A stretch of 64,000 nt of DNA from Candidatus Hodarchaeota archaeon (GCA_048886685.1 JBHLKM010000005.1:200659-264658); one strand, 5' to 3'. Counted from the first letter of the stretch, positions 1,014-16,377 are shown. The notes: generated by a model not told the origin, from the letters alone. Translations and numbers: made by a program.

Positions 1014-3221
1014 TTATATTTCTTTAGGAAAAATGACCAGTTCAGTAAGTTCATTTACTTTCATTAATTTCCTATTAATGAAAATCCTGACTTTCTCAGA
1101 AGTAATTTTAGGATTATTCATGAATAACTCTTGTACAATAATATGGCATTTTTTTCCTTTTTTTGCCAATTTTTCATGAATAGGATTATTTTCATTATAA
1201 ATGGGAATTGGAAACATAAATGGTCTTTTATGAATATGTCTTGAACTTTTTATTTGCTTTATCTTTTTCGATAAATTAGGGGTGTTTAAAATCGCCGATA
1301 AATAATAAGCTTCTTCTTCTGATTCAGTAGAATAATAATAATTTTCAGATCCGACAATAATAGTTTGATCTTCATTATTAATGACTGCTGCTTTTAAATT
1401 AGAGCCACTTGCATTGTATACTGTAAGAAAGGATTTGTTATTAACTTGTTTATGCAATTTATTCCAATAATTCAAATTATCATAGAGAGTATCAATTTTA
1501 CTTGTCACTTTCTTATTTGCTTGGTAAATAGTGTTCATTTCATTATAAAAACTCTGAGCTTTTGGATATTGTTGAAGATAGTCAAGATCAAAATTAAATC
1601 GAGTATTGATAGGTAAGAATACATCTTTTAATTGTTTTAAGTGAAAGGGGATAAGGTCTATGTTTAAAAATGTTTTAAAGTGAAACTTATCTTCAATTTC
1701 TTTATTTTTGAAAGGATGTAACCATTTTTCTTTAGCTCTGGATAATATATCAGGATCAGAATCGATTGTGAGATACCCATTTTTCTTATTTTTAATTTGA
1801 AAAAATATAAGTGTTCTCGGAACCAATGTGGCTCCCTGATAGAATTTCTTTTTATATGGGCTGTTCTGTAAATTATTTAACATCTTTAATTCATGAATAG
1901 GCATAATTAATTTCGCACCATTACCGTTATCATCGATTTTTAAACTTGAATATGATGTTTCCTTGATTAGCTCTGATTTATTATTAAAGATTTTTGTTTT
2001 AATGGGATATCTTTTTGTGATCGGTATGTAATTGTCTTTACCAATATATTCTGCTTTCAAACAAATATGTTCTACATTGAAAAAATAACTATCCGGAAAG
2101 TCCCAAATTTCTAAATTTGCATTAAATGAATAAAATGCTCGAAATTTGTAGCAATGATCCCCGTTTAATACGCTTTTAGGCATAACAAAAAATATCTTAC
2201 CCCCATTCTTTAAAAAATAAAAGGGAATTGCATAGAAGAAAATTCCTGCCAATTCTATATGCGTTATGTATTGACTTAATGGTTTAATCCTTAATAGATT
2301 TGATAATTCACGAATTTTAATTTGGTATGCTTTATCGAATAAATCCTTATATGTTAACCATGGGGGATTACCTATAACCAAATCAAATGAATTAAATATG
2401 TTATTCAATTGTAGATCTATTTTATTCTTACAATCATCTGGAAATAAAGAATCACAGAGGAAGACATTAATCTCTGGGAATTCCCCTCTTTTGAATTTAA
2501 AAAACTCAAGATAGATTAAAAGCATATTAACCTTTGTGGTAATAATTGCTAATGGATTAACATCAAATCCAAAGACGTTATTAATTGCCTTAATCTTATT
2601 GGAAAGAGAATTTTTTGAATCAAGAATTTTAATAATGGTATTAATTAAAAAATTTCCCGAACCGCAAGATGGATCCAAAATTTTTAACCCAAATTCATAA
2701 AAATCCTCTAGCATTTTAGATACAAGGTGTGAAGGAGTAAAGAATTCCCCTCTTTTATGTCTTATGTTAGAAATAAATATATGTTGATAAAATTGACTGA
2801 AAATGTCTTGTTTTTCGGTTATAGGGTTTTCAATTTCATTATTTATTTTGTTAAGTATTTCTTCTTTAACTGATGTCCAAAAAAAGTATTTATATTCGAA
2901 TATTTTAAGTTTTTCAATTTCATTTTCTATAGGATTATTGAATATTTCTTTAAAATTGAGACCCTCGATAAAGCTTATTTTGGACATCACTAATATCTTC
3001 AATAAATGAACAAAATAGGTATGTTTTAAAAAAAGTTCAGAAGAAATTTCTTTACCATAAATATTAATAAATATTTTCTTCCATTTTTTAAAGTTAGGTT
3101 CGAAATTTACCTCAGAGATAGATCTCTCCTTAAGGAATTTCATAAATTCAGTATAAATCTCTGAATGTACGCCAAATTTTTTATCAATAATTTCGGAATT
3201 TATTAAATTTTTGATTCCCAT
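1014..3221 (-). CDS. N6-adenine-type DNA methyltransferase with probable C-terminal target-recognition region
   Basis: GEFFTP, ILDPSCGSGNF (SAM-binding), GFDVNP and catalytic IGNPPW. Confidence 0.9.
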   Translation of the reverse strand: MGIKNLINSEIIDKKFGVHSEIYTEFMKFLKERSISEVNFEPNFKKWKKIFINIYGKEISSELFLKHTYFVHLLKILVMSKISFIEGLNFKEIFNNPIENEIEKLKIFEYKYFFWTSVKEEILNKINNEIENPITEKQDIFSQFYQHIFISNIRHKRGEFFTPSHLVSKMLEDFYEFGLKILDPSCGSGNFLINTIIKILDSKNSLSNKIKAINNVFGFDVNPLAIITTKVNMLLIYLEFFKFKRGEFPEINVFLCDSLFPDDCKNKIDLQLNNIFNSFDLVIGNPPWLTYKDLFDKAYQIKIRELSNLLRIKPLSQYITHIELAGIFFYAIPFYFLKNGGKIFFVMPKSVLNGDHCYKFRAFYSFNANLEIWDFPDSYFFNVEHICLKAEYIGKDNYIPITKRYPIKTKIFNNKSELIKETSYSSLKIDDNGNGAKLIMPIHELKMLNNLQNSPYKKKFYQGATLVPRTLIFFQIKNKKNGYLTIDSDPDILSRAKEKWLHPFKNKEIEDKFHFKTFLNIDLIPFHLKQLKDVFLPINTRFNFDLDYLQQYPKAQSFYNEMNTIYQANKKVTSKIDTLYDNLNYWNKLHKQVNNKSFLTVYNASGSNLKAAVINNEDQTIIVGSENYYYSTESEEEAYYLSAILNTPNLSKKIKQIKSSRHIHKRPFMFPIPIYNENNPIHEKLAKKGKKCHIIVQELFMNNPKITSEKVRIFINRKLMKVNELTELVIFPKEI

Positions 3222-3279: not shown

Positions 3280-3825
3280 TTACTTTCTCATAAATGTTGG
3301 AAGCATGAAAGAAAAAATCTCTGCAATCTTCCTCAATTTTGCTTTCTCTTGTATAGTTGTGATAATTAATACTGATCTTGATAGCTCTTCTCTATCCAAA
3401 GAACCTCCAGAATAAATTGCTTGATTAGTATTGAACACTAATAAAAATCTCACATTGGGATTATTAATTATACTTATCCCTTCGGTAACCTTCAAATCAT
3501 CATAAATAGGTCGAAGGTTTTTTGGTAAATTTCCTCTATCATTTGTGATTAAAAGTACTGGAATCCCCTTTTGAGAAACTTTTTTTAATTCTTTAGAATA
3601 GAACTCATCTATTTTCGGTGTAACAATGTTTAACTGCTCTTTAGTTGACGCAATCAAATTTAACAGTTGATCATTGAGCACATTTCTTTTCTCTAACCCA
3701 CCAGAAGATTCTATGTTAAACATACCTACTAATGTCATTATTTTATTTTCTAATGAAGCTATTTCCTGCTTCAAACGCTTATTTTCTACGCGTAACTCGA
3801 GTAATCGATCGGAAATCTCACCCAC
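3280..3825 (-). CDS. Coiled-coil plus PLD-like fold protein lacking the HKD motif
   Basis: N-terminal heptads. LIASTKEQLNIVTP...KGIPVLLIT...VRFLLVFNTNQAIYSGGSL follows the PLD-fold pattern but has no HxK(x4)D. Confidence 0.6.
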   Translation of the reverse strand: MGEISDRLLELRVENKRLKQEIASLENKIMTLVGMFNIESSGGLEKRNVLNDQLLNLIASTKEQLNIVTPKIDEFYSKELKKVSQKGIPVLLITNDRGNLPKNLRPIYDDLKVTEGISIINNPNVRFLLVFNTNQAIYSGGSLDREELSRSVLIITTIQEKAKLRKIAEIFSFMLPTFMRK

Positions 3826-4012
3826 CCACCGTTTATGTTAACTTATTCAACTCAAAACATGTTTCCATTCATTATATTTATTTTTCTTAATTTCTTTTTA
3901 AATAATGAATTTTACAAGTTTGATATTTTAAATTTAATTCTTGTATTAATTAATTAAAATTTACTTTATAAATATTTTTTATTCCATATTTTTTTATATT
4001 AAAGTTTTAAAT

Positions 4013-6604
4013 TCAGGAAATTAATTTTTTCCAGGGTTGTCCAAAGAGTAAAAAACTTGATACTGCTAAACTGCTTCTTAAGTCAATTCTTGCTACACCC
4101 TCTTTCTCTAATGAGTCTTTAAATTCTTGTTGCACAATTTCTTCCATCTTCTTTGCTATGCATTGTTGTCGAGCCTTAAGAAGTGATACTCCTTGACTAT
4201 TATTATTAAATAGATTAATAAAAAAGAATGAAGTAATATCTTTAGTTTCTTCGTTGAAAAGAGGGTATGTTCTTGAAATAATTCCAGTAAATTTGGTTTG
4301 ATCGAATTGAGCAACGATCTCCCCAAATGTTTTGAGACCATTCTTTAGTTTTTGACCTTCTATATCAAAAATCTGGGCGTTAAAAAATAACAGAGGATTT
4401 AAATTCGAGTTATTTTGACTTAAAGTATTATTTATTTCTCTGAATGTAATGATTTCACTATCATTAACTAGCAAGTAGCTATCATTTGGGCTCCATTTAG
4501 AATAAAATATATTTCCTACAAATATAATAATATGATAAAAATCTTTTAACAGATGGTCAAAAAAATTATCTCGTGTCGATTTTGAGCCAATAAGCGTAGT
4601 AATTTGATTAACTTTGTCGGCATTATTAAAGAAATTGATAATATAGTTTACTTCATTCGCACCGGCAGTAAAAGGGTATATTAGTTCTTTTCTTTTCAAT
4701 TCATTATTCCATTTTAAAGGACTTGTAGAATTTATAGATTCAATTATTAAAACATTGAATTTTCCATTATCTTGCTCAACTACAGATTTAATTAAAGATG
4801 CCTCTTCAAAAGAAATACCTCCAAGTGGTATTTCACCAATTTTATATCCAATAGAATATTTTAACAAGAAAAAATTATTATCGTATATCAAATCAAAAGG
4901 AATCGTCATATTATCTATAACAAAATAAATCTGAGGTATAGTTTTTAGACTTTCAATTTTAAAAGATTTAAAAAAATTTCTTATTAATTTTGGTAAAAAA
5001 ATATATAATAATTCCCCAAATTCGTTAAGGTTAATTGTAAACTTTCTCTTTTCAGTCTCATAGAAAAGCTCATTATATATCTCTAATATTTGAGTATCAT
5101 TCCAATATTCATTAGTGATAATACCCTCTAAAATTTGATAATCTGTTGAAAAAATACGATACGATATCATCCCTTTAGAATTTATTCTTAGAATCATATT
5201 ATTAATAGAAAAACCTTCATTGTCTAATCTAAGAGAATTTATGCCGTCTTCAAATGAATAAATCTGACTTTTTAAAGGTTCTACTTCATTATATAAGGAT
5301 ACAACATCTTTTATCAATTTGTTAAAATCCTTTTCAAGATAAAATATTATTTTTTGCGCTATTTTAAAATTCTTTTCTTCAAAAAGAGCACGATAGAACA
5401 TCATTCTCCAAAAATCTCTTTGCTCTAAAGAGAAGAACATAGACTTGAATTGCCAGAGTAAATTACAGGTATAAAAATAATGAAAGATTTGAGCGCTCGT
5501 TTGAGGTATTTTTAAATGGTTATCTAGTTTTTCTAACGACTGTAATAAATACTTTTTCTCTTTCATTTCAACAAATTTTTTGCAGGCTTCAACCCATAGT
5601 TCAATTAAGATGTTGTCGTAGGAAAGATCTGTTTTATACATGAATAAATCTTCTAAGAAATCATAGATTTCAAAGGCTATTTCAAAGCGATTTCTATTAA
5701 TTGAAAAATCAATGAATTTCCGTATATAGGTAATTGCATCCCCATAAGATTGAAATTCTTGCATTTTTGAGAAAATATTCCTAATAATAATGATAATCCA
5801 GGAATATTCTCCTATGTCATTCAAATAATTTATCAGTTCCTCAAGATCAACCAAAATGGTACTAAAACTTCTTTCGTTGATCGCGATTCTACTAATACTA
5901 CTAAATTCGTTTTTTAAATACTGTGGAAGTCGATTGATCAGAATTTTATTTATAAATCTCACAAATTCTGAGGAATCTTCCATAAGATTATATTTAATAC
6001 AAACGTCCTCTAAAATCATATAAATGAATAACGTTCTCTTACTTGGTTCTAATTTTAACACAGTTTTACCTAACTTTTCCATACTTAAATGAAAAAATTC
6101 TGAAGGCGCTACAGATTTCCTTAGAAACATCAGTAAAATTTGTAATTCTATTAGCTTCTGGAATTCTTCTTTTTCATGTAATTTTACAGAAAAGGAATTA
6201 ATGAATTTTGTTATTCCTTTCTGAGATAAATCTTCAATTTTTATAAATTGCTTAAGAAGGTTTATCCCAAAATTATTAAATAAATAAAAATCATCTAAGT
6301 TTGCTAAAAATGAAAAGAATCTTTTATACGCATCAATATATCTGATTAAATCAATTTTAACTTCTCCTTCTTCTCGTTTAACAAGCGAATTTAAATATAT
6401 CCACCAAGAGTTCGAGATTATCATTAATAATTGATGCTTTTTTTGGATGTCTAACCATTCATTTTTTTCTATATCCATTCTTAAATTTTCAAGTAAATTT
6501 GAAGCCCATTTATGATTAGCACCAAATAATAATTTCCGTGCTATTATTATTTTTTTTTGAAAGTCTGTTAAAAATTCCTGTTTTATATCTAAACTTACTG
6601 TCAT
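4013..6604 (-). CDS. Helical-repeat protein with a C-terminal CHAT (caspase-like) domain, catalytic dyad replaced
   Basis: GELLYIFLP, IPFDLIYDNNFFLL, HIIIFVGN (for HFAGH), LLFFNAQ (for LxFLNAC), SLLKARQ, FLLFGQP. Confidence 0.75.
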   Translation of the reverse strand: MTVSLDIKQEFLTDFQKKIIIARKLLFGANHKWASNLLENLRMDIEKNEWLDIQKKHQLLMIISNSWWIYLNSLVKREEGEVKIDLIRYIDAYKRFFSFLANLDDFYLFNNFGINLLKQFIKIEDLSQKGITKFINSFSVKLHEKEEFQKLIELQILLMFLRKSVAPSEFFHLSMEKLGKTVLKLEPSKRTLFIYMILEDVCIKYNLMEDSSEFVRFINKILINRLPQYLKNEFSSISRIAINERSFSTILVDLEELINYLNDIGEYSWIIIIIRNIFSKMQEFQSYGDAITYIRKFIDFSINRNRFEIAFEIYDFLEDLFMYKTDLSYDNILIELWVEACKKFVEMKEKKYLLQSLEKLDNHLKIPQTSAQIFHYFYTCNLLWQFKSMFFSLEQRDFWRMMFYRALFEEKNFKIAQKIIFYLEKDFNKLIKDVVSLYNEVEPLKSQIYSFEDGINSLRLDNEGFSINNMILRINSKGMISYRIFSTDYQILEGIITNEYWNDTQILEIYNELFYETEKRKFTINLNEFGELLYIFLPKLIRNFFKSFKIESLKTIPQIYFVIDNMTIPFDLIYDNNFFLLKYSIGYKIGEIPLGGISFEEASLIKSVVEQDNGKFNVLIIESINSTSPLKWNNELKRKELIYPFTAGANEVNYIINFFNNADKVNQITTLIGSKSTRDNFFDHLLKDFYHIIIFVGNIFYSKWSPNDSYLLVNDSEIITFREINNTLSQNNSNLNPLLFFNAQIFDIEGQKLKNGLKTFGEIVAQFDQTKFTGIISRTYPLFNEETKDITSFFFINLFNNNSQGVSLLKARQQCIAKKMEEIVQQEFKDSLEKEGVARIDLRSSLAVSSFLLFGQPWKKLIS

Positions 6605-6625
6605 TAAATTGTTATTTCCTTATTT

Positions 6626-7813
6626 TTAATCATTATTTTGAATGGTGTTCCTTATTTCTTCTCCTGCGGAGAGTTTAGGGTTTTGTTCCCATCCTTTACT
6701 TAATTTGCCTTGTGCCCATAAAACACTCGCTCCAACCCAGCTAATATTCTCTCTGCCTGAAACTGCCATTACATTAATTTTTTCTTTAATTCTTTCTGAG
6801 AAGAACTTTGAAATCTCAATTTTTAATCTCTTTTCAAATCCAGGGATCAAACTCCCGCCACCTGCGAGAATAATATTCGATAATAATTCTTCCCAATTTT
6901 CTCGATCCCATGTACGGATGACCTTAGCAATTGCTTCGGGTAAGCCAATATAATCAATATGAATTATTAATGGATTGAATAGAGGCTCTGAAATAAGAAA
7001 TCTTTCTGAATTAATTTCTAAACTAGACCCATCAGGTAGATCGATATTACTTGTGTACTTTGTAAAACCATCCTTTATTCGCCTGATTTCCTCCTCTGGA
7101 TCTAAAACACATAACGATAATTTATCTTTTATTTCCTTTGCAATGATATGATCAAGATAAATTGATTTTCCAGATCTAATTTTGGTTAAAAGTAAGTTGA
7201 GCAGATAATTGGTTATATCTTTACCCGCAACTGGATAAGTATCTCTTGCTATAACATTAGAAAAACCATGTAAAAATGATGTAATGTATGTATTTTCCTC
7301 GCCTATACTTACGATTACTCCACTTGTTTTCCGGAATGTAGATATTATTCCTTGACTTTCAGATATAAATAGAATACTTGGAAAATCAAACACATTAAAA
7401 AAAATATCTCTCAATTTAGTTTTCTCTAATTCAGGCATGAAGAAGGGTGTTATTATGATAATTGGTTGTTTAAATTGATTATTTTCCGATATTTCTAACT
7501 CTTTATAATGATGATAGAAGAATTTCATCAAAATTGTAAAATTGTTTTCTTTTTTAAACTCATGTACTGTAAGTATATTGGAATATTTTAGCGCTTCATG
7601 ACCAAATAACTGACCCTCTACATTTTTTTCCTCCATAAATATATCTTCAAGACCATCAATTACATCTGAAGTAAAGAGATAATCGGTATTATCAACGTAG
7701 ACACTAGGAGCAATAATATCTGGATAATCATTTCCTGCCCATCCCAATCGAAAAAAATTATTCCCTATATCGAGAATTAATGGACGTAATTGATTATTTT
7801 TTTCAGATGACAT
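6626..7813 (-). CDS. Actin-related protein (divergent Asgard ARP)
   Basis: LILDIGNNFFRLGWAGNDYP, AGKDITNYL, LPDG, ERFLISEPLFNP, IILAGGGSLIPGFEKRL and SWVGASVL match actin-family motifs. Confidence 0.92.
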   Translation of the reverse strand: MSSEKNNQLRPLILDIGNNFFRLGWAGNDYPDIIAPSVYVDNTDYLFTSDVIDGLEDIFMEEKNVEGQLFGHEALKYSNILTVHEFKKENNFTILMKFFYHHYKELEISENNQFKQPIIIITPFFMPELEKTKLRDIFFNVFDFPSILFISESQGIISTFRKTSGVIVSIGEENTYITSFLHGFSNVIARDTYPVAGKDITNYLLNLLLTKIRSGKSIYLDHIIAKEIKDKLSLCVLDPEEEIRRIKDGFTKYTSNIDLPDGSSLEINSERFLISEPLFNPLIIHIDYIGLPEAIAKVIRTWDRENWEELLSNIILAGGGSLIPGFEKRLKIEISKFFSERIKEKINVMAVSGRENISWVGASVLWAQGKLSKGWEQNPKLSAGEEIRNTIQNND

Positions 7814-7863
7814 ATTTTTCTGATTGATTTTAATTAATTAGAACTTATAGAAAAAAGCGCTAT

Positions 7864-8712
7864 TTAATACTTCATTTCATGAATTAAATCGTCTGTAACT
7901 CTTTTTAATTGATACTCCTTAATTTGCAATTCTAATAAACCTAAAACTCTTTTAAATTTTCCAGACATAGATTCTATGTCAACTTCTGCCACTTTTTCAA
8001 CTTCATCGCGTTTAACTTTGAATAGCTCTAACTGCGATTGGATCTTTTTATATTGATTATTAATAGATACAACTAAATCTTCTGTATTTTTCTTGGTTAT
8101 TTTACGCATTTTTCTTAAAATAGCTAATATATTAGAAATAGAATTTTCCCATCTCTCATATCTCTCATTATAACTCTTTAACAATTCCTCAAAAAATATC
8201 GTTAATTTGGCATAAATGTTATCTTTTTTAATAGAGGATTTTGTTTTTTTCTCTGGAGGTGTTGGAGCTATTTCTTCTTTAACTCCTATGACATCTTTTT
8301 CAACGGGAGGTACTGTTGAAGCTTCTATTTGAATCTTCGGAGGAAATGCAGTTTTAGGTTTTTCCTCGGTCATTAATGGTTTCGATTTTTCTTTGGATTC
8401 TGGGGCGACAATTTTCTCTCGTTTCTGGGATGGTTTTCTTTGTGCTAAAGGGACATCCTCTAAAGCATAAGCTTCTGCTATTTCACTTCTACTTTCGTGA
8501 GATAAGTGAGGTGTAATTTTTTCCTCTCCTTCTTTCTTAGGAAGCACAAATCCCTTTCCTTCGGTAGCCTCCTCCATTAAGCTCTGCAATGTTGTTTTTG
8601 TAGTTTTTGTTGAACTCAAGGCGTCATTTAAGGAATACCCTTGAATATCCCCTATCTCTTCAACTTCTTCAACAACTTTTTTTTTCTTTTCTTTTTTCTT
8701 CTTCTTCCCCAT
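7864..8712 (-). CDS. Hypothetical protein: poly-Lys N-terminus, disordered E/K/P-rich middle, C-terminal coiled coil
   Basis: Composition and heptad pattern; co-oriented with the ARP gene. Confidence 0.75.
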   Translation of the reverse strand: MGKKKKKEKKKKVVEEVEEIGDIQGYSLNDALSSTKTTKTTLQSLMEEATEGKGFVLPKKEGEEKITPHLSHESRSEIAEAYALEDVPLAQRKPSQKREKIVAPESKEKSKPLMTEEKPKTAFPPKIQIEASTVPPVEKDVIGVKEEIAPTPPEKKTKSSIKKDNIYAKLTIFFEELLKSYNERYERWENSISNILAILRKMRKITKKNTEDLVVSINNQYKKIQSQLELFKVKRDEVEKVAEVDIESMSGKFKRVLGLLELQIKEYQLKRVTDDLIHEMKY

Positions 8713-8753
8713 AAAATATACCTATATACTAAATAAAATTCTAATTTATGAAT

Positions 8754-9161
8754 TTATTCGAAAGGTAAGATATCAACATTAAGTGCCTTTCCGTTTTTTA
8801 TCAAACCTTCTCTTAATTCTTCCATTGTAATATTTTTAGGAGTTGGACTAAGTACCGTCCAAATTGCTGTTTTCGATTTTTCTAAAATGATACTCTCTCC
8901 CCACATTAAAGAAATACCAAATTCTCCAAAAACTGTTGCTATTTTTGCTAAAGATCCAGGCTCATCGACCATTGTTATCCTAAATTTAATAGGTTTATCT
9001 GCCTTCGAAATTCCTACTGGTGTTATTCGTATTTCCTTTGTTTCTGAATCGCTTACAAGCATTAGTTGGGAATCCGTTGTAATACCAAGATGTTTCCTAG
9101 TTACTAATGGAAGTACAATTCTCCCTCGATTATCTATGGATATAATTTTTACATCCTTCAT
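8754..9161 (-). CDS. AbrB/MazE-type DNA-binding domain fused to an ACT domain
   Basis: IDNRGRIVLPLVTRKHLGI (AbrB); DEPGSLAKIATVFGEFGISL (ACT). Confidence 0.85.
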   Translation of the reverse strand: MKDVKIISIDNRGRIVLPLVTRKHLGITTDSQLMLVSDSETKEIRITPVGISKADKPIKFRITMVDEPGSLAKIATVFGEFGISLMWGESIILEKSKTAIWTVLSPTPKNITMEELREGLIKNGKALNVDILPFE

Positions 9162-9313
9162 AGTTCTTAATATATTACTATTTCTTTTAATAATTACAAT
9201 ATGGAAATAATTTTCTTATAAATATTAACGAAATTATTATTAATAATTTTAATGAAAACTTTCCAGAAAAGAAGTGTAAAACAGAAATAATATAAAAAAT
9301 TAAAATATAATAG

Positions 9314-11413
9314 TTATTCTTTATGAGCTTTTAACTTTACAGTAAGATCTCGAGCTCTTTTTGAATACCATATCAATAATTCTCCTGCATCTTCAGGCTC
9401 AAAATATTCTCCACCGCACAAAGACGCTGCTCGTATCATTAATTCACGATCTGGATTTCCAAGACCAACGATGTAGGTAACAACATTGGGATTATCAGAT
9501 AATTTTTTAATTTCACTTAAAAATAGCTCAGGATCCGTTGGAATTCCATCTGTCAAAAGTACTACCATATTTGGACTATCTGGACTGATCTGCTGGAAGT
9601 TTGCTAACACATTATTAGCTTGTACCATTGCAGCACCCATATTTGTGGCCTGTCCATATGCATTTCCAATTCTGTCAACAATCATACGTGCAGCATCCTC
9701 AAGAACGCCTTTTTTACCACTAGCGGAATCCATATAATAACTATTACCAAATGGCAAAATTTGTGCCTCGTCAGCAAATCGTATTACTGCTACTTTTTCT
9801 CCGAAACCTCTTCCAACCTTTTCGCTTAAAAATAAAACTGCAGCAAAAGCAGCAGATATCCGTCGGGGTATATTAATGCCATCCTTGAAATGTTTTAAGA
9901 ACTCTTGAATTTCTCGAGATTCCATAGCCGCTTTTATTCCTTCAATAGCAGGAGCTATGTTTGTTACAAACACATCTCTTGCCATCATACTCCGGCTAAT
10001 ATCTATTATTAAAATAGCGTTAAAGGGAACTAATCCTACTGGACTTAAAGTTAACGTAGTATTTTCAGTGACACTTGCAAAAATATCTCCAGTAAGATCA
10101 GGAACAGTCTCCAAAACCGAGCAAGCAATGTTTACAGCATTCCATCTTAACTTTATTCCCTTAAAGATAACGTAATTTGATATCCAGCTTTTCATAGATG
10201 ATACATTTTCTCGTGCAGTGCTAATAGTTTCCCAAATTGCTTCTCCCGATATTGGTGAAACACCCAAAGAAATATTCTGTAAAGGAATAATCGTTCTTTG
10301 ATTCTTAGAAACTTTTACTTCAAAGCTTCCTATCCCAGAAGCTTCTAATATTTCACTATCAATGATAATTACATCATCTGGAGTTGATTCTAAAACATCT
10401 ACTTTTCCAGCACCCATAGCTCCAGTTAATTCATCCTCGAACGCCAGAATATCATTTTGCTGAATTGAGAGAGAAAGCTGAGTTCTTGGGCTCACCAATG
10501 CATATCCCATTAAATTAGGTTGGGATTCAACCTGTAACATTAATTCAGATACTTTTTCTATGGGGGGTTCTGTTGAATACACGACTACTTGGTCAGATTG
10601 AATATTGGTATCTTCATAAGTATCAAAACTCATCTTTATATCAGTCATAGCGATATTTGTTTCATCAATCCGAGCCGATCCCATAGACCTTGTTAAAGGA
10701 TCTTCCCAAGCTATTAACATTCCTCGACCAAGACCTAATTTTTGTATAATATTAGGACTTAATTGAACTCTTCCTCCTTCAATATTGTTATCCAATACAG
10801 GTTTAAGAATTATACCACGTTTTTGACTCACTAACGTATTGATATCGATTTTATTAGGGTAAGGTTCAACGGGAGCTGCTGGCTCAATCGAAGGTTGTGC
10901 TGAAGGTAATGGAGATAAGGAAGGCGGTGGTGCAGGAGCAGGTGGTGTTGGCGTGATTTGAGGTGTTGGTGTAAGCTGTCTGATTGGTTGAGGTATTGTA
11001 GTAGGTTGAGGAACTGGGGCTGGCTGAATCTGTGGAGGTGGTGCAGGTTGTGGAGTTGGTTGTTGTGCGGCTGTAGGTTGAGGAGGGAATGATTCAGGAG
11101 CGAACTGTTGTGTAGGAACTTTAGGAACTTGTTGTTCAAGTGAAAGGGAGGCAGCAGCACTAGCAAGACGCACAGTTAGCTCTACTCCTGAAAATTGTAA
11201 ATCTTCAAGAATATTCTTTGCGAATTGACCCGCAAAATCTAACATGTCATTTGATATTTCTACGACAGCGACTTTTTTTAAGTTATTATCTAAATTAATA
11301 ATCTCTACTGAATCTCCATTTTTAACGCCGAGTTCATCTGCATTAGATTGACAAATTACGACTTTATTAGATATTTCATCACTAGCATCTACAAAAAGTT
11401 TAAGTTCTGCCAT
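9314..11413 (-). CDS. vWA (MIDAS) protein with double-psi-barrel/CDC48-N-like domains and a Pro/Gln-rich linker
   Basis: LIIDISRSM (DxSxS), ATNMGAAM, VLLTDG. ADELGVKNGDSVEI, QKLGLGRGMLI and LSLSIQQNDIL resemble DPBB repeats. ~95-aa Pro-rich tract. Confidence 0.8.
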   Translation of the reverse strand: MAELKLFVDASDEISNKVVICQSNADELGVKNGDSVEIINLDNNLKKVAVVEISNDMLDFAGQFAKNILEDLQFSGVELTVRLASAAASLSLEQQVPKVPTQQFAPESFPPQPTAAQQPTPQPAPPPQIQPAPVPQPTTIPQPIRQLTPTPQITPTPPAPAPPPSLSPLPSAQPSIEPAAPVEPYPNKIDINTLVSQKRGIILKPVLDNNIEGGRVQLSPNIIQKLGLGRGMLIAWEDPLTRSMGSARIDETNIAMTDIKMSFDTYEDTNIQSDQVVVYSTEPPIEKVSELMLQVESQPNLMGYALVSPRTQLSLSIQQNDILAFEDELTGAMGAGKVDVLESTPDDVIIIDSEILEASGIGSFEVKVSKNQRTIIPLQNISLGVSPISGEAIWETISTARENVSSMKSWISNYVIFKGIKLRWNAVNIACSVLETVPDLTGDIFASVTENTTLTLSPVGLVPFNAILIIDISRSMMARDVFVTNIAPAIEGIKAAMESREIQEFLKHFKDGINIPRRISAAFAAVLFLSEKVGRGFGEKVAVIRFADEAQILPFGNSYYMDSASGKKGVLEDAARMIVDRIGNAYGQATNMGAAMVQANNVLANFQQISPDSPNMVVLLTDGIPTDPELFLSEIKKLSDNPNVVTYIVGLGNPDRELMIRAASLCGGEYFEPEDAGELLIWYSKRARDLTVKLKAHKE

Positions 11414-11642
11414 ATTTATTCATTAATTTTACTCTATTTTTTAATTTAATATAAGTGATGTAGATTAAAATTTCTATCAATTAATCTTTAACAGTCTTTA
11501 TTAATAATAAACTAATATCAGTATAAGATATTTATCAAGAATTGATAAACTTATCCATATAAATAAATTTGTGCGAAAAATAATTAAAGAAAAAAAAAAA
11601 GAATTATGATTTAAGTAAAATTTGTTTTCAGATTTAACCTTA

Positions 11643-11768
11643 TTATTGTTGTACTGCTAGTATTTCTGCCTCAGAAACCATAAGATCATACTTATAAATG
11701 TATCCCTCAATTACATGAAATCCTGCCAAAAATCGGGTGATATATGTTAATGCTTCCTCTAAAGACAT
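11643..11768 (-). CDS. Small 41-aa protein not in the ORF track (MSLEEALTYITRFLAGFHVIEGYIYKYDLMVSEAEILAVQQ)
   Basis: ATG-to-TAA frame, co-oriented within the cluster, protein-like composition between AT-rich flanks. Confidence 0.55.
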   Translation of the reverse strand: MSLEEALTYITRFLAGFHVIEGYIYKYDLMVSEAEILAVQQ

Positions 11769-11878
11769 ACATTTATGTTAAAAAAACATGATTTCTTTAC
11801 TAAAATTTACACACAGAAATAGAATGTAAAGTAAAGATTAAGTGAGAGAAAATGATGAAAAAATGAAATTTTTTAACT

Positions 11879-12265
11879 CTATTTGGGATATCTTTTACTT
11901 ATTTCACCTGCATAATATCTGAACACCTTTACAACTTTTCCGAGTTCAGGCATTTGTCTGGATGCGCCCATTAAGAAAAATCTGCCAGCAGCACTGAGTA
12001 TAATAAAACCATTATCGCCACGTAAAATTACCTCCATCATATTATTATAACCGAGAGAATTTATCGCATCATCTCCAGATTGGACAACCACTGCGCTCAA
12101 ACTTGAGAATAAATCAGGATCAATAGCATATCCTGGAATTGCGCTAAACGCAAGACGGAGCCCTTCCCGTGTGATTAAAGCTAAGGCTTCTAAATCGGAA
12201 TATTCAGTTATACTAGATAAAAATGTCGAAAGAGAATGCGCTTCTTCTGGAGTTAATTCAGCCAT
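11879..12265 (-). CDS. Roadblock/LC7 (MglB/LAMTOR-like) protein
   Basis: LALITREGL...DLFSSLSAVVV...EVILRGDNGFIILSAAG. Confidence 0.88.
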   Translation of the reverse strand: MAELTPEEAHSLSTFLSSITEYSDLEALALITREGLRLAFSAIPGYAIDPDLFSSLSAVVVQSGDDAINSLGYNNMMEVILRGDNGFIILSAAGRFFLMGASRQMPELGKVVKVFRYYAGEISKRYPK

Positions 12266-12397
12266 AATGAATTAAATTTTTTTTTATTCAATTAATAATA
12301 AGTAAAAAATTTAGACTTAAAAAATTATATTTTGCGAATATTTGAAATTTTAAACTTCTTTAAATAAAATAAGAGAAATTAAATTGAAAAAATTTAC

Positions 12398-13237
12398 TTA
12401 ACTACCTTCTAATTGTTGTTTAATTTGATCTTTTAATAACTCTCGTTTTGATTTTCCTTCTACTGGAGTAGATGGTCGGCCAGTACGTTTAAGAAACTCT
12501 ATTGCTAATATCTTTCCCTGTTCTGACAAAATTCGAGGGCTGTAATTCTCAGCGAAGAAGATTCCCTCAGGGATCGAACCTACTTTCGAGATTTCTTTAG
12601 TAACCTGCTTTTCCCCTAAGAATTGTTGTACTTTTTCAACGACAGAATAAGCTTGGTTTCCAATTATTATTAATTCTCTTTCAAAACCAGTAGGTATCTT
12701 AATTTCTTCTAATTTCGCCATAATCTCTTGAAAATCGATTTGAGTCTCCTCTTGCATATATGCTGCCATCGAATCGTCTCCTCTATATAAAGGACCTGCA
12801 TTTTGTGCTGCTAGTGTTTTACTCCCTGCAATATTCATTCCGTTAGCGGGTTCTGGAGCTCCAAAAATATTCCTTTCCCTCAATGGATGAACGCTTGGTG
12901 GAGCCATTGGTTCACCTTTTATTTCTTTAGCAATTCCCGCTTTTGTTCTTCCACCAATAAGATTTATAAATTCAGCATCCTCATCACCCTCGTCAAGAGG
13001 TATTACACTATAATGCATTCCCACTTGACCACGAATTTCTTGAGATCTTTTCGCACCAATAAACTTGGATCTAACACTACTTTTAACACCCTTCCAAAGA
13101 TAAACCTTTCTAGCATCATCAGCAACAAGGACATAACACTCGTCAGTTTTTAACATATCCTTAATTGAACCTTCAGTTGTCAGTTCGGTTGTTGTTCCAT
13201 CTGGATTAATAAGAAACAATTGCGTTATTTTAATCAA
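12398..13237 (-). CDS. Gelsolin-domain protein (one gelsolin domain plus a second domain; 1DGelX-like)
   Basis: LKTDECYVLV...VYLWKGVKSSVRSKFIGA...DEGDEDAEF; second domain FERELIIIGNQAY; TTG start. Confidence 0.85.
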   Translation of the reverse strand: MIKITQLFLINPDGTTTELTTEGSIKDMLKTDECYVLVADDARKVYLWKGVKSSVRSKFIGAKRSQEIRGQVGMHYSVIPLDEGDEDAEFINLIGGRTKAGIAKEIKGEPMAPPSVHPLRERNIFGAPEPANGMNIAGSKTLAAQNAGPLYRGDDSMAAYMQEETQIDFQEIMAKLEEIKIPTGFERELIIIGNQAYSVVEKVQQFLGEKQVTKEISKVGSIPEGIFFAENYSPRILSEQGKILAIEFLKRTGRPSTPVEGKSKRELLKDQIKQQLEGS

Positions 13238-13454: not shown

Positions 13455-15020
13455 TTAAAGATTAAATATTTCTTTTATAGCCTTATTAATATTGTTAATC
13501 ATATCGACTGCAGTAAAACGCGTTCCAATGTTCTCTTTACAATATTCACCAATAATACCATTAAGGAATGCACCAGAACATGCTGATTTAAATAGATTAT
13601 TATCTGTAGCTAAGAAAGCAGCACATAATCCAGCTAAGACGTCACCTGTACCACCTATTGACATTTCTGGACAACCTGTGCGATTAATTTTTAGTTCTTT
13701 CCCATTGCTTATATAATCATAGGGGCCTTTTACAAGGAGAGTAAAATCATATATTTTCGCTAACTTTAATACTGCTTTGCTCCTTTCTTCAATCTGGTCA
13801 TAGGGAGGTAATTCAATACCAGTCATTATTTCTAATTCCCCTTCATGTGGTGTTAAAATAACTTGCTGACCTTTCAATATTTCAAGATGATTTTTAACTA
13901 ATTTTAAAGAATCAGCATCAAGTAAATATGGCTTCTTTTCTTGATTGAGTTTTTTCAATAGATTTACTAATAATTCTTCAGTTTCCTTTTGCAATCCTAA
14001 CCCAGGTCCTATGACTACAGCGTTCGACCATTCAATCAATTCTGAGATTTCATTAAAGGAATTCATATTTAACCATTTACCTGGGCTTGTTCTAACAATC
14101 ATGTTTGGGGAAAAATTTCTTATAACATCTCCAATAACCTCTGGAACATAGGTAATAACCAAATCAATTCCAAAATTAATTCCTGCTAGCGAAGAATATG
14201 CAGGAGCACCAGAATAATTTTTGGAACCTCCAATAACAAGTATTCTTCCAAATTGTCCCTTATGATTATCAATATTTCTAGTTTTTAGGGTTGGAAATAA
14301 ATCACCTCTTCCTACGAATATCGACGCCTCAAAGGGGACTCCGATGGATCTAATTATGATTTTTTTTATATAATCGCTTTTAATATCTAATCCTTTTTTA
14401 ATTCGATGGAGTGCTACAACTAAATCTGCTCTCACAGCCTTATGAACCACTTCTCCGGTATCTGGATTCATACCAGAAGGTAAATCTATTGATACGACAT
14501 TTATTTCGCTTTCCTCTCTCAATTTATTTATAACGTCGATAGCTGTAGAAATAGGTTCTCGGATTTTTCCAGATATTCCTGTGCCTAATAATGCATCGAC
14601 AATTAAACTTAGATTCTTCTTATCTTCTCTCAATAATCTTATTTTTTCAATTTCTGTTGAATCACGTATTATTATCGTTTTAACCAAATAATTAATTTTG
14701 TTCTTAATTGCATCCCAATTGAATCGTGAAGCCATAGTTCTTATTTTTTCTGGAGTCCCAACCAGGATTACTAAAGATTTGATATTAAATGCACTTAAAT
14801 GTCTTGCAACTACAAAACCATCTCCCCCGTTATTTCCAGTACCACAAAAAATCGCAACAGTTGACTTATTACTAAGATTGTATCTTCGTACAATTTCATC
14901 CGCAATAGCGTATCCAGCACACTCCATTAAATGAATTAAGGGAATTCCCAACCATTGAGCATTATTATCGGCTATAGTAACATCTTCAGCCAAAATTTTT
15001 TCAGAATTAAATCTCTCCAT
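13455..15020 (-). CDS. nnr: Bifunctional NAD(P)HX epimerase/dehydratase
   Basis: CGTGNNGGDG, DALLGTG, HKGQFGRILVIGGS, TPHEGE, GGTGDVLAG. Confidence 0.95.
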   Translation of the reverse strand: MERFNSEKILAEDVTIADNNAQWLGIPLIHLMECAGYAIADEIVRRYNLSNKSTVAIFCGTGNNGGDGFVVARHLSAFNIKSLVILVGTPEKIRTMASRFNWDAIKNKINYLVKTIIIRDSTEIEKIRLLREDKKNLSLIVDALLGTGISGKIREPISTAIDVINKLREESEINVVSIDLPSGMNPDTGEVVHKAVRADLVVALHRIKKGLDIKSDYIKKIIIRSIGVPFEASIFVGRGDLFPTLKTRNIDNHKGQFGRILVIGGSKNYSGAPAYSSLAGINFGIDLVITYVPEVIGDVIRNFSPNMIVRTSPGKWLNMNSFNEISELIEWSNAVVIGPGLGLQKETEELLVNLLKKLNQEKKPYLLDADSLKLVKNHLEILKGQQVILTPHEGELEIMTGIELPPYDQIEERSKAVLKLAKIYDFTLLVKGPYDYISNGKELKINRTGCPEMSIGGTGDVLAGLCAAFLATDNNLFKSACSGAFLNGIIGEYCKENIGTRFTAVDMINNINKAIKEIFNL

Positions 15021-15117: not shown

Positions 15118-16377
15118 ATGAATGCATTTAAAGAAGATATTAGTGAAGCAAAAGAAAGATTAAAAGCATGGTGGGATCATGAAATTATCGATCGTCCCGC
15201 TATCTCATATTATTACCCCCGCGAAGGTGCCTCATTTACTGGGCTTCTCGATATTTTTGGGTTAGGGTGGGATTTAGCTAAATATCCTGATAGCATTGAA
15301 CAAGTACTTAAAAATTTTGAGGATAGAATATCAGGTTTATACTTTGGAGGGGAAAACATTCCTTCTTTTTTTCCAAACTATGGTGCGGGAATTATGGCTG
15401 CAGTTTTTGGAGTTATACCAAAGTATCAGACTCGAACTGTCTGGTTCAGTCGTCCTACTCCTGTTGATGAGATTGTTTCCCTCCTTGAAAGCGTTAAATT
15501 AAACAATGATAATCCTTGGTATTCAAGATTATTACGTATAACAGAATATGCCGCTAAAAAGTCTCAAGGAAAATATCAAGTCTCAATGACAGATTTAGGA
15601 GGGATTTTAGATATTCTATCCTCTTTTTTAGGTCCTAAAAATATTATTCTTACTATGAAAAGACGTCCTGATATTATAGATACGTGCCGGGCTGTAATCT
15701 TAGAAAAGACTCTGAAAGTTTATGACGATCTTCAAAATATAATTGAAAAATATAATGACGGATGTAATGCGTGGCTTAATGTGTGGAATGCAAAGCGATG
15801 GTATCCTATTCAATGTGATTTTAGTGCAATGCTTAATCCTAAATGGTTCAAAAGATTTGCACTACCTGACATTAAAGCTCAGGCAGCTCATATGGACTAT
15901 TCAATATATCATTTAGATGGTCCATTAGCTATCACTCATCTAGATGACTTATTATCAATTCCAGAACTTACAGGAATTCAATGGGTGCCAGGCGATGGTC
16001 GAGAACCAATGGGACATGAGAAATGGTATCCAATTTATAAAAAAATTCAAGCTACAGGCAAAAATATTGTCAATACAGTAACCCCTAGTCGACTTTCTAC
16101 TATGTATCGAAATTTTGATCCAAAAGGATTATATCTTCGAACTGTATTTTTTAGTTACCATCTTGCAGGGTTTTATTTACCAAAATTTATTGGAGGAGAT
16201 GAAGGTGAAATCATCGAAAGGAGCATTGAATGGGCAGAATTGAGAAATTTGGATCATCTGAGTAATACAAATTTCGAATTATTTCTAGAAGAAAATAAAA
16301 TAAGACTTGAAAATAGAGATCCTATAAAAGTACAACAGGAAATAAATAGAAAATTAAAACGTAGGAAAAGAACCTAG
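15118..16377 (+). CDS. URO-D/cobamide methyltransferase-like TIM-barrel protein
   Basis: TDLGGILDIL, QCDFSAM, YHLDGP, IQWVPG. Confidence 0.75.
   Translation: MNAFKEDISEAKERLKAWWDHEIIDRPAISYYYPREGASFTGLLDIFGLGWDLAKYPDSIEQVLKNFEDRISGLYFGGENIPSFFPNYGAGIMAAVFGVIPKYQTRTVWFSRPTPVDEIVSLLESVKLNNDNPWYSRLLRITEYAAKKSQGKYQVSMTDLGGILDILSSFLGPKNIILTMKRRPDIIDTCRAVILEKTLKVYDDLQNIIEKYNDGCNAWLNVWNAKRWYPIQCDFSAMLNPKWFKRFALPDIKAQAAHMDYSIYHLDGPLAITHLDDLLSIPELTGIQWVPGDGREPMGHEKWYPIYKKIQATGKNIVNTVTPSRLSTMYRNFDPKGLYLRTVFFSYHLAGFYLPKFIGGDEGEIIERSIEWAELRNLDHLSNTNFELFLEENKIRLENRDPIKVQQEINRKLKRRKRT

Follow-up and report, generated by a model that had tools for sequence, protein, structure and literature searches.

Gene content of the locus

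The sequence analyzed here is a stretch of 64,000 nt from the Candidatus Hodarchaeota archaeon assembly GCA_048886685.1 (JBHLKM010000005.1:200659-264658), hereafter the window, to which all positions refer. Nine open reading frames (ORFs) follow one another on the minus strand between positions 3280 and 13237, at the coordinates given by a first-pass annotation, which had read them as one candidate Asgard cytoskeletal-signaling system joining an actin-related protein (ARP) and a gelsolin-domain protein. We arrive at a different reading, to which we assign a probability of about 0.6: the supposed nine-gene system consists of two separately inherited modules of Loki-type Asgard archaea, which lie side by side in the family of the window by synteny.

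In the direction of transcription, module A comprises the genes for a two-domain gelsolin (Gel; 12398..13237), a roadblock/LC7 protein (Robl; 11879..12265) and, as its last member, a protein with CDC48_N-like barrels, a Pro-rich linker and a vWA domain (9314..11413). The gene for the bifunctional NAD(P)HX epimerase/dehydratase Nnr (13455..15020, minus strand; Pfam Carb_kinase 153 bits, YjeF_N 136 bits) lies outside the nine-gene stretch and is the first gene of the conserved Nnr–Gel–Robl–vWA block. Module B is headed by a gene for a protein with an AbrB/SpoVT-type DNA-binding domain and an ACT domain (AbrB-ACT; 8754..9161), followed by those for a coiled-coil protein (CC; 7864..8712), a divergent ARP (6626..7813), a protein of TPR-like helical repeats and a CHAT/caspase fold without the catalytic dyad (CHAT-like; 4013..6604) and, last, a protein with an N-terminal coiled coil and a single PLD-fold domain that lacks the His of the HKD motif (PLD-like; 3280..3825). 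The remaining ORF, of 41 aa (11643..11768), lies between Robl and vWA and is probably not a gene.

The GC content of the region is about 27–34%, and that of module B resembles its surroundings. The intergenic gaps measure 132 bp (Gel/Robl), 110 bp (Robl/41-aa ORF), 229 bp (41-aa ORF/vWA), 152 bp (vWA/AbrB-ACT) and 187 bp (CHAT-like/PLD-like), and Robl and vWA are 465 bp apart in total. The gaps from AbrB-ACT to CC, CC to ARP and ARP to CHAT-like are 41, 50 and 21 bp, in agreement with the 20–50 bp first estimated. The first domain identifications were likewise borne out by family, profile and structure-model searches, and the view that this is not a metabolic operon was correct.

The nine genes fall into two modules

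About 150 genomes were compared for gene order, all from the order of Lokiarchaeum and Promethearchaeum, which comprises families f1 to f4. The window belongs to f1; f2 includes Ca. Lokiarchaeum ossiferum B-35 (G170), Promethearchaeum syntrophicum MK-D1 (G037) and Ca. Harpocratesius repetitus (G031), and f3 is represented by Lokiarchaeota CR_4 (G025). These four genomes were identified by exact sequence matches. The order CC–ARP–CHAT-like–PLD-like is kept at 22–40% identity in f1, in f2 (L. ossiferum, MK-D1, G035 and G038) and in f3 (CR_4), and in several loci the ARP and CHAT-like frames overlap or are 4–21 bp apart. When 40 genomes were searched with the ARP, ARP and CHAT-like turned up together in 25 and were jointly missing from 14, the remaining genome being interrupted by a contig end. 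CC, ARP, CHAT-like and PLD-like thus form a conserved operon, with order and orientation maintained across families and with ARP and CHAT-like present or absent together. Module A is also an order-wide unit: Nnr, Gel, Robl and vWA stay together in both f1 and f2. Examples from f2 are L. ossiferum and Harpocratesius, with gaps of 38–96 bp, and MK-D1, whose supplementary table contains a matching run of genes (DSAG12_01763-01766).

The two modules do not keep together to the same extent. The positions of vWA and CHAT-like were compared in 108 genomes. In f1 they are no more than 4.5 kb apart in 66 of the 86 same-contig cases (11 genera), 4.5–20 kb apart in another 17 and 91 kb apart in one. In both cultured species of f2 the modules are remote from each other, Gel–Robl–vWA being about 309 kb from the ARP operon in L. 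ossiferum and about 317 kb in MK-D1. Within f1 they are split in several lineages (G010, G174, G188 and others); in G010, which belongs to the same genus as the window, module A is intact on a contig separate from module B. Where the modules do adjoin in f1, their junction tolerates insertions of 2–12 kb.

As a synteny control, we used the gene for an N6-adenine DNA methyltransferase that flanks module B (1014..3221, minus strand; Pfam N6_Mtase and Eco57I) and belongs to neither module. The adjacency of modules A and B in f1 is no stronger than that of this unrelated gene, which is syntenic downstream of PLD-like in most f1 genera. Since Nnr and the methyltransferase are equally syntenic in f1, the adjacency of the modules in this family corresponds to background synteny. 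Among genomes of the window's own genus, collinearity extends over all of the locus and on to Nnr and the methyltransferase at its two ends; by itself this is uninformative.

Each module also occurs without the other or with part of it missing. A vWA match was found in all four f4 genomes, from which module B is absent, and module B is present without vWA in genus g17 and in genome G278, both of which retain Gel–Robl. In the genus of the window, G007 and G016 carry neither block, a check that for these two included the orthologous Gel, and G011 and G220 are without at least vWA and module B. Such a joint absence is explained by one deletion, because the blocks are contiguous there.

These data bear directly on the proposal that all nine genes encode one cytoskeletal-signaling scaffold, in which the ARP and the gelsolin would pass nutrient signals (sensed through ACT) or small-GTPase signals (through roadblock) to actin. 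The genes are co-oriented, vWA and AbrB-ACT adjoin in 66 of the 86 same-contig f1 genomes, and G007 and G016 have lost both blocks together. In addition, in genus g5 a gelsolin paralog (316 aa; positions 6979-7929 of the G029 locus, and 7002-7049 of the G033 locus) directly follows an AbrB-ACT–CC–PLD-like array from which ARP and CHAT-like are absent. Against a single scaffold stand the separation by about 310 kb in both cultured species, the splits and insertions in f1, the equal synteny of unrelated flanking genes, the occurrence of each module without the other and the sufficiency of one contiguous deletion to account for joint loss; moreover, an oligo-T run and a long spacer separate each of Gel, Robl and vWA from the next gene. 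The two blocks adjoin only in f1, and the order of the nine genes does not exceed the background synteny of the family. The claim of conserved gene order holds across families for CC, ARP, CHAT-like and PLD-like and fails in other Lokiarchaeia for the set of nine.

The GTPase part of the proposal derives from the family name roadblock. No GTPase gene was found among the cluster and flanking genes scanned against Pfam or among their conserved neighbors, and Robl therefore does not fit the MglB or Ragulator type of small-GTPase regulator, for which a cognate small GTPase encoded or fused nearby would be expected. A GATOR/Ragulator/CASTOR-like reading of Robl, ACT and vWA was likewise rejected, as there is no GTPase and AbrB-ACT belongs to the other module. 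Taken together, we consider a single nine-gene scaffold very unlikely. Two of the observations above nevertheless weigh against a complete separation of the modules: their adjacency in f1, in 66 of 86 same-contig cases and 11 genera, and the g5 gelsolin paralog mean that actin regulators and module B may still be functionally tied in some looser way.

Module B encodes an ARP and three non-catalytic proteins

The ARP (395 aa) matches Pfam Actin at 154 bits (cut-off 27) over residues 9–375, and its profile matches actins of the PDB at about 190 bits. It is the weakest-scoring and most divergent of the four actin-family genes of the genome, whose Lokiactin-like copy scores 441 bits, and it shares 28–29% identity with the latter. 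When the two were aligned, the ARP was found to retain the actin residues D11, G13, G156 and G301, while positions G15, Q137, D157, G158 and H161 are replaced, by residues that differ among orthologs. Judged by these residues, the ARP is not a Lokiactin or a bona fide filament-forming ATPase actin. To our knowledge, Lokiactin is the only Asgard actin-family protein that has been seen in filaments.

The ortholog in L. ossiferum, UYP47647.1 (NEF87_003932), is 30% identical to the window ARP and occupies the same operon position; that in MK-D1 is DSAG12_01479. UYP47647.1 is one of three non-Lokiactin actin homologs of L. ossiferum, was placed among Asgard and eukaryotic ARPs, and its transcript was detected by reverse transcription-quantitative PCR at a level several-fold below that of Lokiactin (Rodrigues-Oliveira et al. 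2022, PMC9834061). The L. ossiferum frame (locus 7100-8236) stays open for about 55 codons 5′ of the annotated start of the 307-aa protein; the extension encodes the first phosphate loop but contains no ATG, GTG or TTG start. RefSeq carries a 362-aa version, and the GenBank entry seems to be N-terminally truncated by annotation.

The CHAT-like protein of the window (863 aa) has no Pfam match, and its CR_4 ortholog matches Pfam CHAT at 27.3 bits (cut-off 24). In an AlphaFold2 model (mean predicted local distance difference test, pLDDT, 74) it consists of a helical solenoid and an alpha/beta domain, and Foldseek aligned this model with the TPR-CHAT protein Csx29 (E 4e-7, probability 1.0), with the CHAT anti-sigma factor DdvA and with separase (E 1e-4). 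The caspase-like fold of the CHAT/clan CD proteins is thus present and the His-Cys dyad is not: in 14 of 14 orthologs the position of the catalytic His is occupied by Asn (Leu in one) and that of the Cys by Gln, Lys, Val or His. In G005, a complete 3.3-Mb genome, the CHAT-like protein is short at its C terminus (832 aa, matching residues 1–786) and PLD-like is absent.

A similar picture emerged for the PLD-like protein (181 aa). Its own Pfam score of 19.6 bits is below the cut-off, and all eight orthologs match PLDc_2. The ortholog profile matches NucT (E 7.7e-5), and the AlphaFold2 model (pLDDT 81) aligns with NucT at a template-modeling (TM) score of 0.62–0.70 (E 6e-8) and also matches the DUF1669 domain of FAM83, Nuc, TrmBL2, Zucchini and TrmB. 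The PLD fold is therefore present without the catalytic HxK(x)4D motif, whose His is an invariant Asn (N124) and whose Asp is Phe, Trp or Ile in eight of eight orthologs. The suspected loss of activity in the protease and PLD folds is thus borne out: no ortholog keeps either residue of the CHAT dyad or the His of the HKD motif. Distant coiled-coil/PLD-fold paralogs in other orders of the class adjoin long coiled-coil proteins that carry a MarR-like winged helix at the C terminus, and each such pair resembles a TrmB-type regulator whose parts are encoded separately. They were considered as an extension of the module and rejected, as their neighbors are unrelated (coiled-coil/winged-helix proteins, an Arf-like GTPase and giant surface proteins).

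The CC protein has a polybasic N terminus with a run of Lys, a disordered linker rich in Pro and Lys and a conserved helical C-terminal domain of about 115 aa, in which F173, W188 and E189 are among the residues invariant in the ortholog alignment. Pfam gave chance-level matches only (PBC, 22 bits) and a PDB sequence search gave none. A homology search returned 519 proteins; among the 120 listed, none has a Pfam domain and all that are named are Asgard hypothetical proteins. By contrast, AbrB-ACT (135 aa) belongs to well-known families: eight of eight orthologs match the AbrB/MazE family and seven of eight match ACT, and AbrB structures, with their swapped-hairpin AbrB/SpoVT domain, match the protein at E 6e-4. 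It is present in f1, f3 and the f2 genus g5; the four f2 genomes whose ARP-containing loci were examined lack it there. AbrB-ACT, which heads module B, is likely a local regulator of the usual AbrB type.

We then computed the ratio of nonsynonymous to synonymous substitution rates (dN/dS) relative to the closest genome. The ratio is 0.08 for CHAT-like, 0.15 for the ARP, 0.16 for CC and 0.07–0.15 for the four remaining genes tested, among them Gel (0.15). The genes are under purifying selection and the dead sites are conserved; these proteins are therefore maintained as non-catalytic, and module B is an (AbrB-ACT)–CC–ARP–pseudoCHAT–pseudoPLD operon of non-catalytic proteins.

Distribution of module B and its neighbors

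Full-length CHAT-like, sought by profile in 398 genomes from across the phylum, was found in 116 of 132 f1, 7 of 14 f2, the single f3 and none of 4 f4 genomes, and in no other family; the other matches were to the CHAT domain of longer paralogs. PLD-like is slightly more widespread, occurring in 12 of 14 f2 genomes. CC and PLD-like stand next to each other, without ARP and CHAT-like, in Harpocratesius, in a second g2 genome (G024) and in genus g5. ARP and CHAT-like therefore behave as a pair that is inserted or deleted between them. In the cultured species, module B corresponds to NEF87_003930-003933 in L. ossiferum (PLD-like UYP47645.1, ARP UYP47647.1, CC UYP47648.1; the module A proteins Gel and vWA are UYP47899.1 and UYP47901.1) and to DSAG12_01478-01481 in MK-D1 (CC DSAG12_01478, ARP DSAG12_01479, PLD-like DSAG12_01481).

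The surroundings of module B differ in f2, where ARP-containing loci have genes for Hef (DEAD helicase, ERCC4 and HhH) and a PHP phosphoesterase upstream and for a conserved protein of 380–410 aa, possibly membrane-bound, downstream. This seven-gene order, from Hef and PHP to the 380–410-aa protein, is kept even in the absence of ARP and CHAT-like. MK-D1 has, in addition, a histone gene another two genes upstream.

The folds of its products and the methyltransferase next to it raise the question of whether module B is a decayed defense or mobile-element remnant without a present role. TPR-CHAT and PLD folds are common in defense effectors, the closest structures are those of Csx29 from type III-E CRISPR and of Nuc-type nucleases, and the downstream methyltransferase is of a type IIG-like kind. 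However, at E 1e-3 the eight genes gave no match to a PADLOC model, unlike the flanking methyltransferase. Module B is present once per genome almost throughout f1, with identities that follow taxonomic distance. The frames are intact with dN/dS values of 0.08–0.16, the dead-site residues N698 (CHAT-like) and N124 (PLD-like) are themselves conserved, and the GC content matches that of the surroundings. The lack of PADLOC matches, the vertical inheritance and the purifying selection make a defense-system origin unlikely, and a functionless remnant is extremely improbable.

Module A is a gelsolin–roadblock–vWA block

The gelsolin of the window scores 18.1 bits in Pfam, below the cut-off, and a profile built from eight orthologs matches the Lokiarchaeota 2DGel structure 7WHG (E 1.9e-11) in two stretches that cover both domains. 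The profile also matches Thor 2DGel3 and Heimdall 2DGel, and both halves of the protein are matched by paralogs. By sequence, the window gelsolin is a member of the Asgard 2DGel gelsolins, a family of actin regulators that has been characterized biochemically.

The roadblock fold was confirmed by Pfam (Robl_LC7 28.3 bits, cut-off 23), and wherever a module A locus contains both Gel and vWA, this gene lies between them. The vWA protein (699 aa) matches Pfam VWA and VWA_2 (34.5 and 33.2 bits) and an archaeal VWA2 structure (5a8j, E 6.6e-6), and has CDC48_N-like repeats with a CDC48_N match of 22.6 bits, below the cut-off, followed by a Pro-rich linker of about 100 aa. Its metal-ion-dependent adhesion site (MIDAS) motif, DxSxS...TD, is intact, with D471, S475, T621 and D622 invariant in seven orthologs. 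It is plausible that Robl and the poly-Pro/vWA protein are partners of 2DGel in module A, and the Nnr–2DGel–Robl–vWA block is a second conserved unit worth separate study.

The Robl gene is more divergent than its neighbors from its counterpart in the closest genome (G017), with 80% aa identity and a synonymous divergence (dS) of 2.9 as compared to 87–92% and 0.4–0.8. In the spacer between Robl and vWA (11414-11878), the first ~300 nt after the Robl gene could not be aligned with G017. This pattern suggests local recombination or allele replacement.

Transcription

Both modules are transcribed in MK-D1, with 195, 175, 170 and 250 reads per kilobase per million mapped reads (RPKM) for CC, ARP, CHAT-like and PLD-like, and 271, 269, 248 and 314 for the genes of module A (Imachi et al. 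2020, Supplementary Table 3). Oligo-T runs occur in the window no more than 20 nt after the stop codons of Gel, Robl, vWA, CC (T6) and PLD-like (T8, 8 nt after the stop), and none was found within 20 nt after those of AbrB-ACT, ARP and CHAT-like. These runs are weak evidence, as they lie in spacers of 11–22% GC.

The 41-aa ORF and the flanking genes

The count of nine consecutive minus-strand genes is correct for eight. The 41-aa ORF gave no tblastn match in any of 33 related loci, and its DNA is unconserved in the closest genome, in which most neighboring genes share 88–92% protein identity. The 157 bp adjoining the vWA start, unlike the DNA of this ORF, are 91% identical there. The 41-aa ORF is probably a chance ORF.

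The methyltransferase (735 aa) is of the type IIG/Eco57I/MmeI kind, with no room for a nuclease domain, and matches the PADLOC model REase_MTase_IIG at 140 bits over the methyltransferase part only. Its place directly downstream of PLD-like is kept in the majority of the f1 loci examined, an unusual stability for a gene of the restriction-modification type, and a helicase-like gene follows it in several relatives. On the other side of the locus, an ORF of 419 aa (15118-16377, plus strand) without Pfam or NCBIfam match is divergent from the adjoining Nnr gene; the two are kept next to each other in the genus of the window and in genus g21 (59–77% identity).

A candidate ARP-containing scaffold complex

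We propose that module A is an actin-regulator-containing block kept throughout the order and that module B is a separate operon whose products would assemble into one scaffold complex. In this model the separase-like pseudoprotease would hold the ARP, whose ATPase residues are degenerate, as a structural subunit; the TPR-pseudoCHAT protein is taken as the main scaffold of the ARP because the two genes are never found apart. CC, with its polybasic tail, and the dimerizing PLD-fold protein would form an older adaptor pair that tethers the complex, conceivably to a polyanionic surface (membrane or DNA) or to Lokiactin filaments, and AbrB-ACT, where present, probably regulates transcription of the operon. 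A non-catalytic scaffold complex containing the ARP is the most likely role of module B, for which it is a candidate on the strength of gene order and sequence.

A complex prediction for the ARP and the C-terminal helical domain of CC (residues 160–282) scored 0.00, the fold of CC being uncertain, and is neutral as to binding. Some observations count against the model. An oligo-T run follows CC as well as PLD-like and thus lies inside the module. Finally, RPKM values in MK-D1 are flat genome-wide, so that the similar levels within each module say little about co-transcription.

Instead of a cytoskeletal device, module B could encode an ARP complex associated with DNA or chromatin, like the nuclear ARP modules of eukaryotic remodelers. 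Coiled coil included, the PLD-fold model can be aligned with TrmBL2, a chromatin protein of archaea, and it also matches the nucleases Nuc, NucT and Zucchini; CC begins with a run of Lys, and AbrB is a DNA-binding fold. The neighborhood points in the same direction, with Hef helicase-nuclease and PHP phosphoesterase before the module in f2, the histone gene further upstream in MK-D1 and a DNA methyltransferase after the module in f1. On the other hand, these neighbors differ between families and may reflect plain synteny, PLD-like lacks the winged helix that TrmB-family proteins use to bind DNA, a polybasic tail is equally able to bind acidic lipids, and the conserved core contains no helicase or remodeler ATPase. 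We regard a chromatin-associated complex as possible but unlikely.

A more far-reaching version of the scaffold model, which appears quite unlikely, is that module B encodes a true archaeal ARP complex in which the pseudoprotease would grip the ARP, that it would nucleate, cap or anchor Lokiactin, and that it would act in f1 as a joint unit with the 2DGel–roadblock–vWA block. If so, it would be a prokaryotic forerunner or analog of the eukaryotic ARP assemblies. Even the simpler scaffold complex, if its products do assemble, would mean that the use of an actin-fold protein as a non-polymerizing scaffold subunit predates or parallels eukaryotes. Asgard archaea encode several ARPs, and the conserved operon names concrete candidate partners for one of them; both cultured Lokiarchaeia carry and transcribe this operon. 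The split into two modules implies that the gelsolin, roadblock and vWA proteins are not to be expected in an ARP complex.

Comparison with known systems

We found no description of the module B operon or of the Gel–Robl–vWA block in the full-text literature; searches for the operon, its accessions and its locus tags led only to the 2022 L. ossiferum paper and the MK-D1 supplementary table, and neither discusses the neighborhood. New here are the separation into two modules, the distance statistics, the occurrence of CC–PLD-like without ARP–CHAT-like, and the locus tags and expression in both cultured species. The non-Lokiactin actin homologs of L. ossiferum were reported without partners, neighborhood or function (PMC9834061), whereas one of them is placed here in a conserved operon with three non-catalytic proteins. 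For module A, the window gelsolin is like the Asgard 2DGels (Akil et al. 2020 and 2022, PMC7444086, PMC9433394) in matching 7WHG with both domains, and differs from those characterized in being a distant paralog (46.7 bits); these papers do not mention a linkage to Nnr, roadblock or a poly-Pro vWA protein.

The CHAT-like protein shares its layout, an N-terminal helical-repeat solenoid followed by a C-terminal caspase-fold CHAT domain, with Csx29 of the type III-E CRISPR 'Craspase', DdvA and separase. It differs from them in that the dyad is missing in all orthologs, that it has no CRISPR or sigma-factor context and that its gene directly follows that of an ARP; TM scores to the TPR-CHAT proteins and separase are low (0.14–0.19) because the orientation of the domains differs.

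Like the C-terminal domains of TrmB and TrmBL2 and the DUF1669 domain of human FAM83, the PLD-like protein has a single PLD-fold domain without the HKD His, and as in TrmBL2 a dimerizing coiled coil precedes the fold. The non-catalytic PLD fold of FAM83 serves binding, which, together with TrmB/TrmBL2, provides a precedent for PLD-like as a binding module. Unlike TrmB and TrmBL2, PLD-like has no winged-helix DNA-binding domain, and no sugar-binding subdomain was identified in it; unlike these and FAM83, it is always paired with CC.

For module B as a whole, searches of Pfam, NCBIfam and PDB sequences with the partner proteins revealed no homologs of ARP-complex subunits. The working analogy is with Arp2/3, dynactin and the HSA-helix/Arp modules of INO80, SWR1 and BAF, in which, as would be the case for the candidate complex described here, a divergent actin-fold subunit is combined with helical adaptors.

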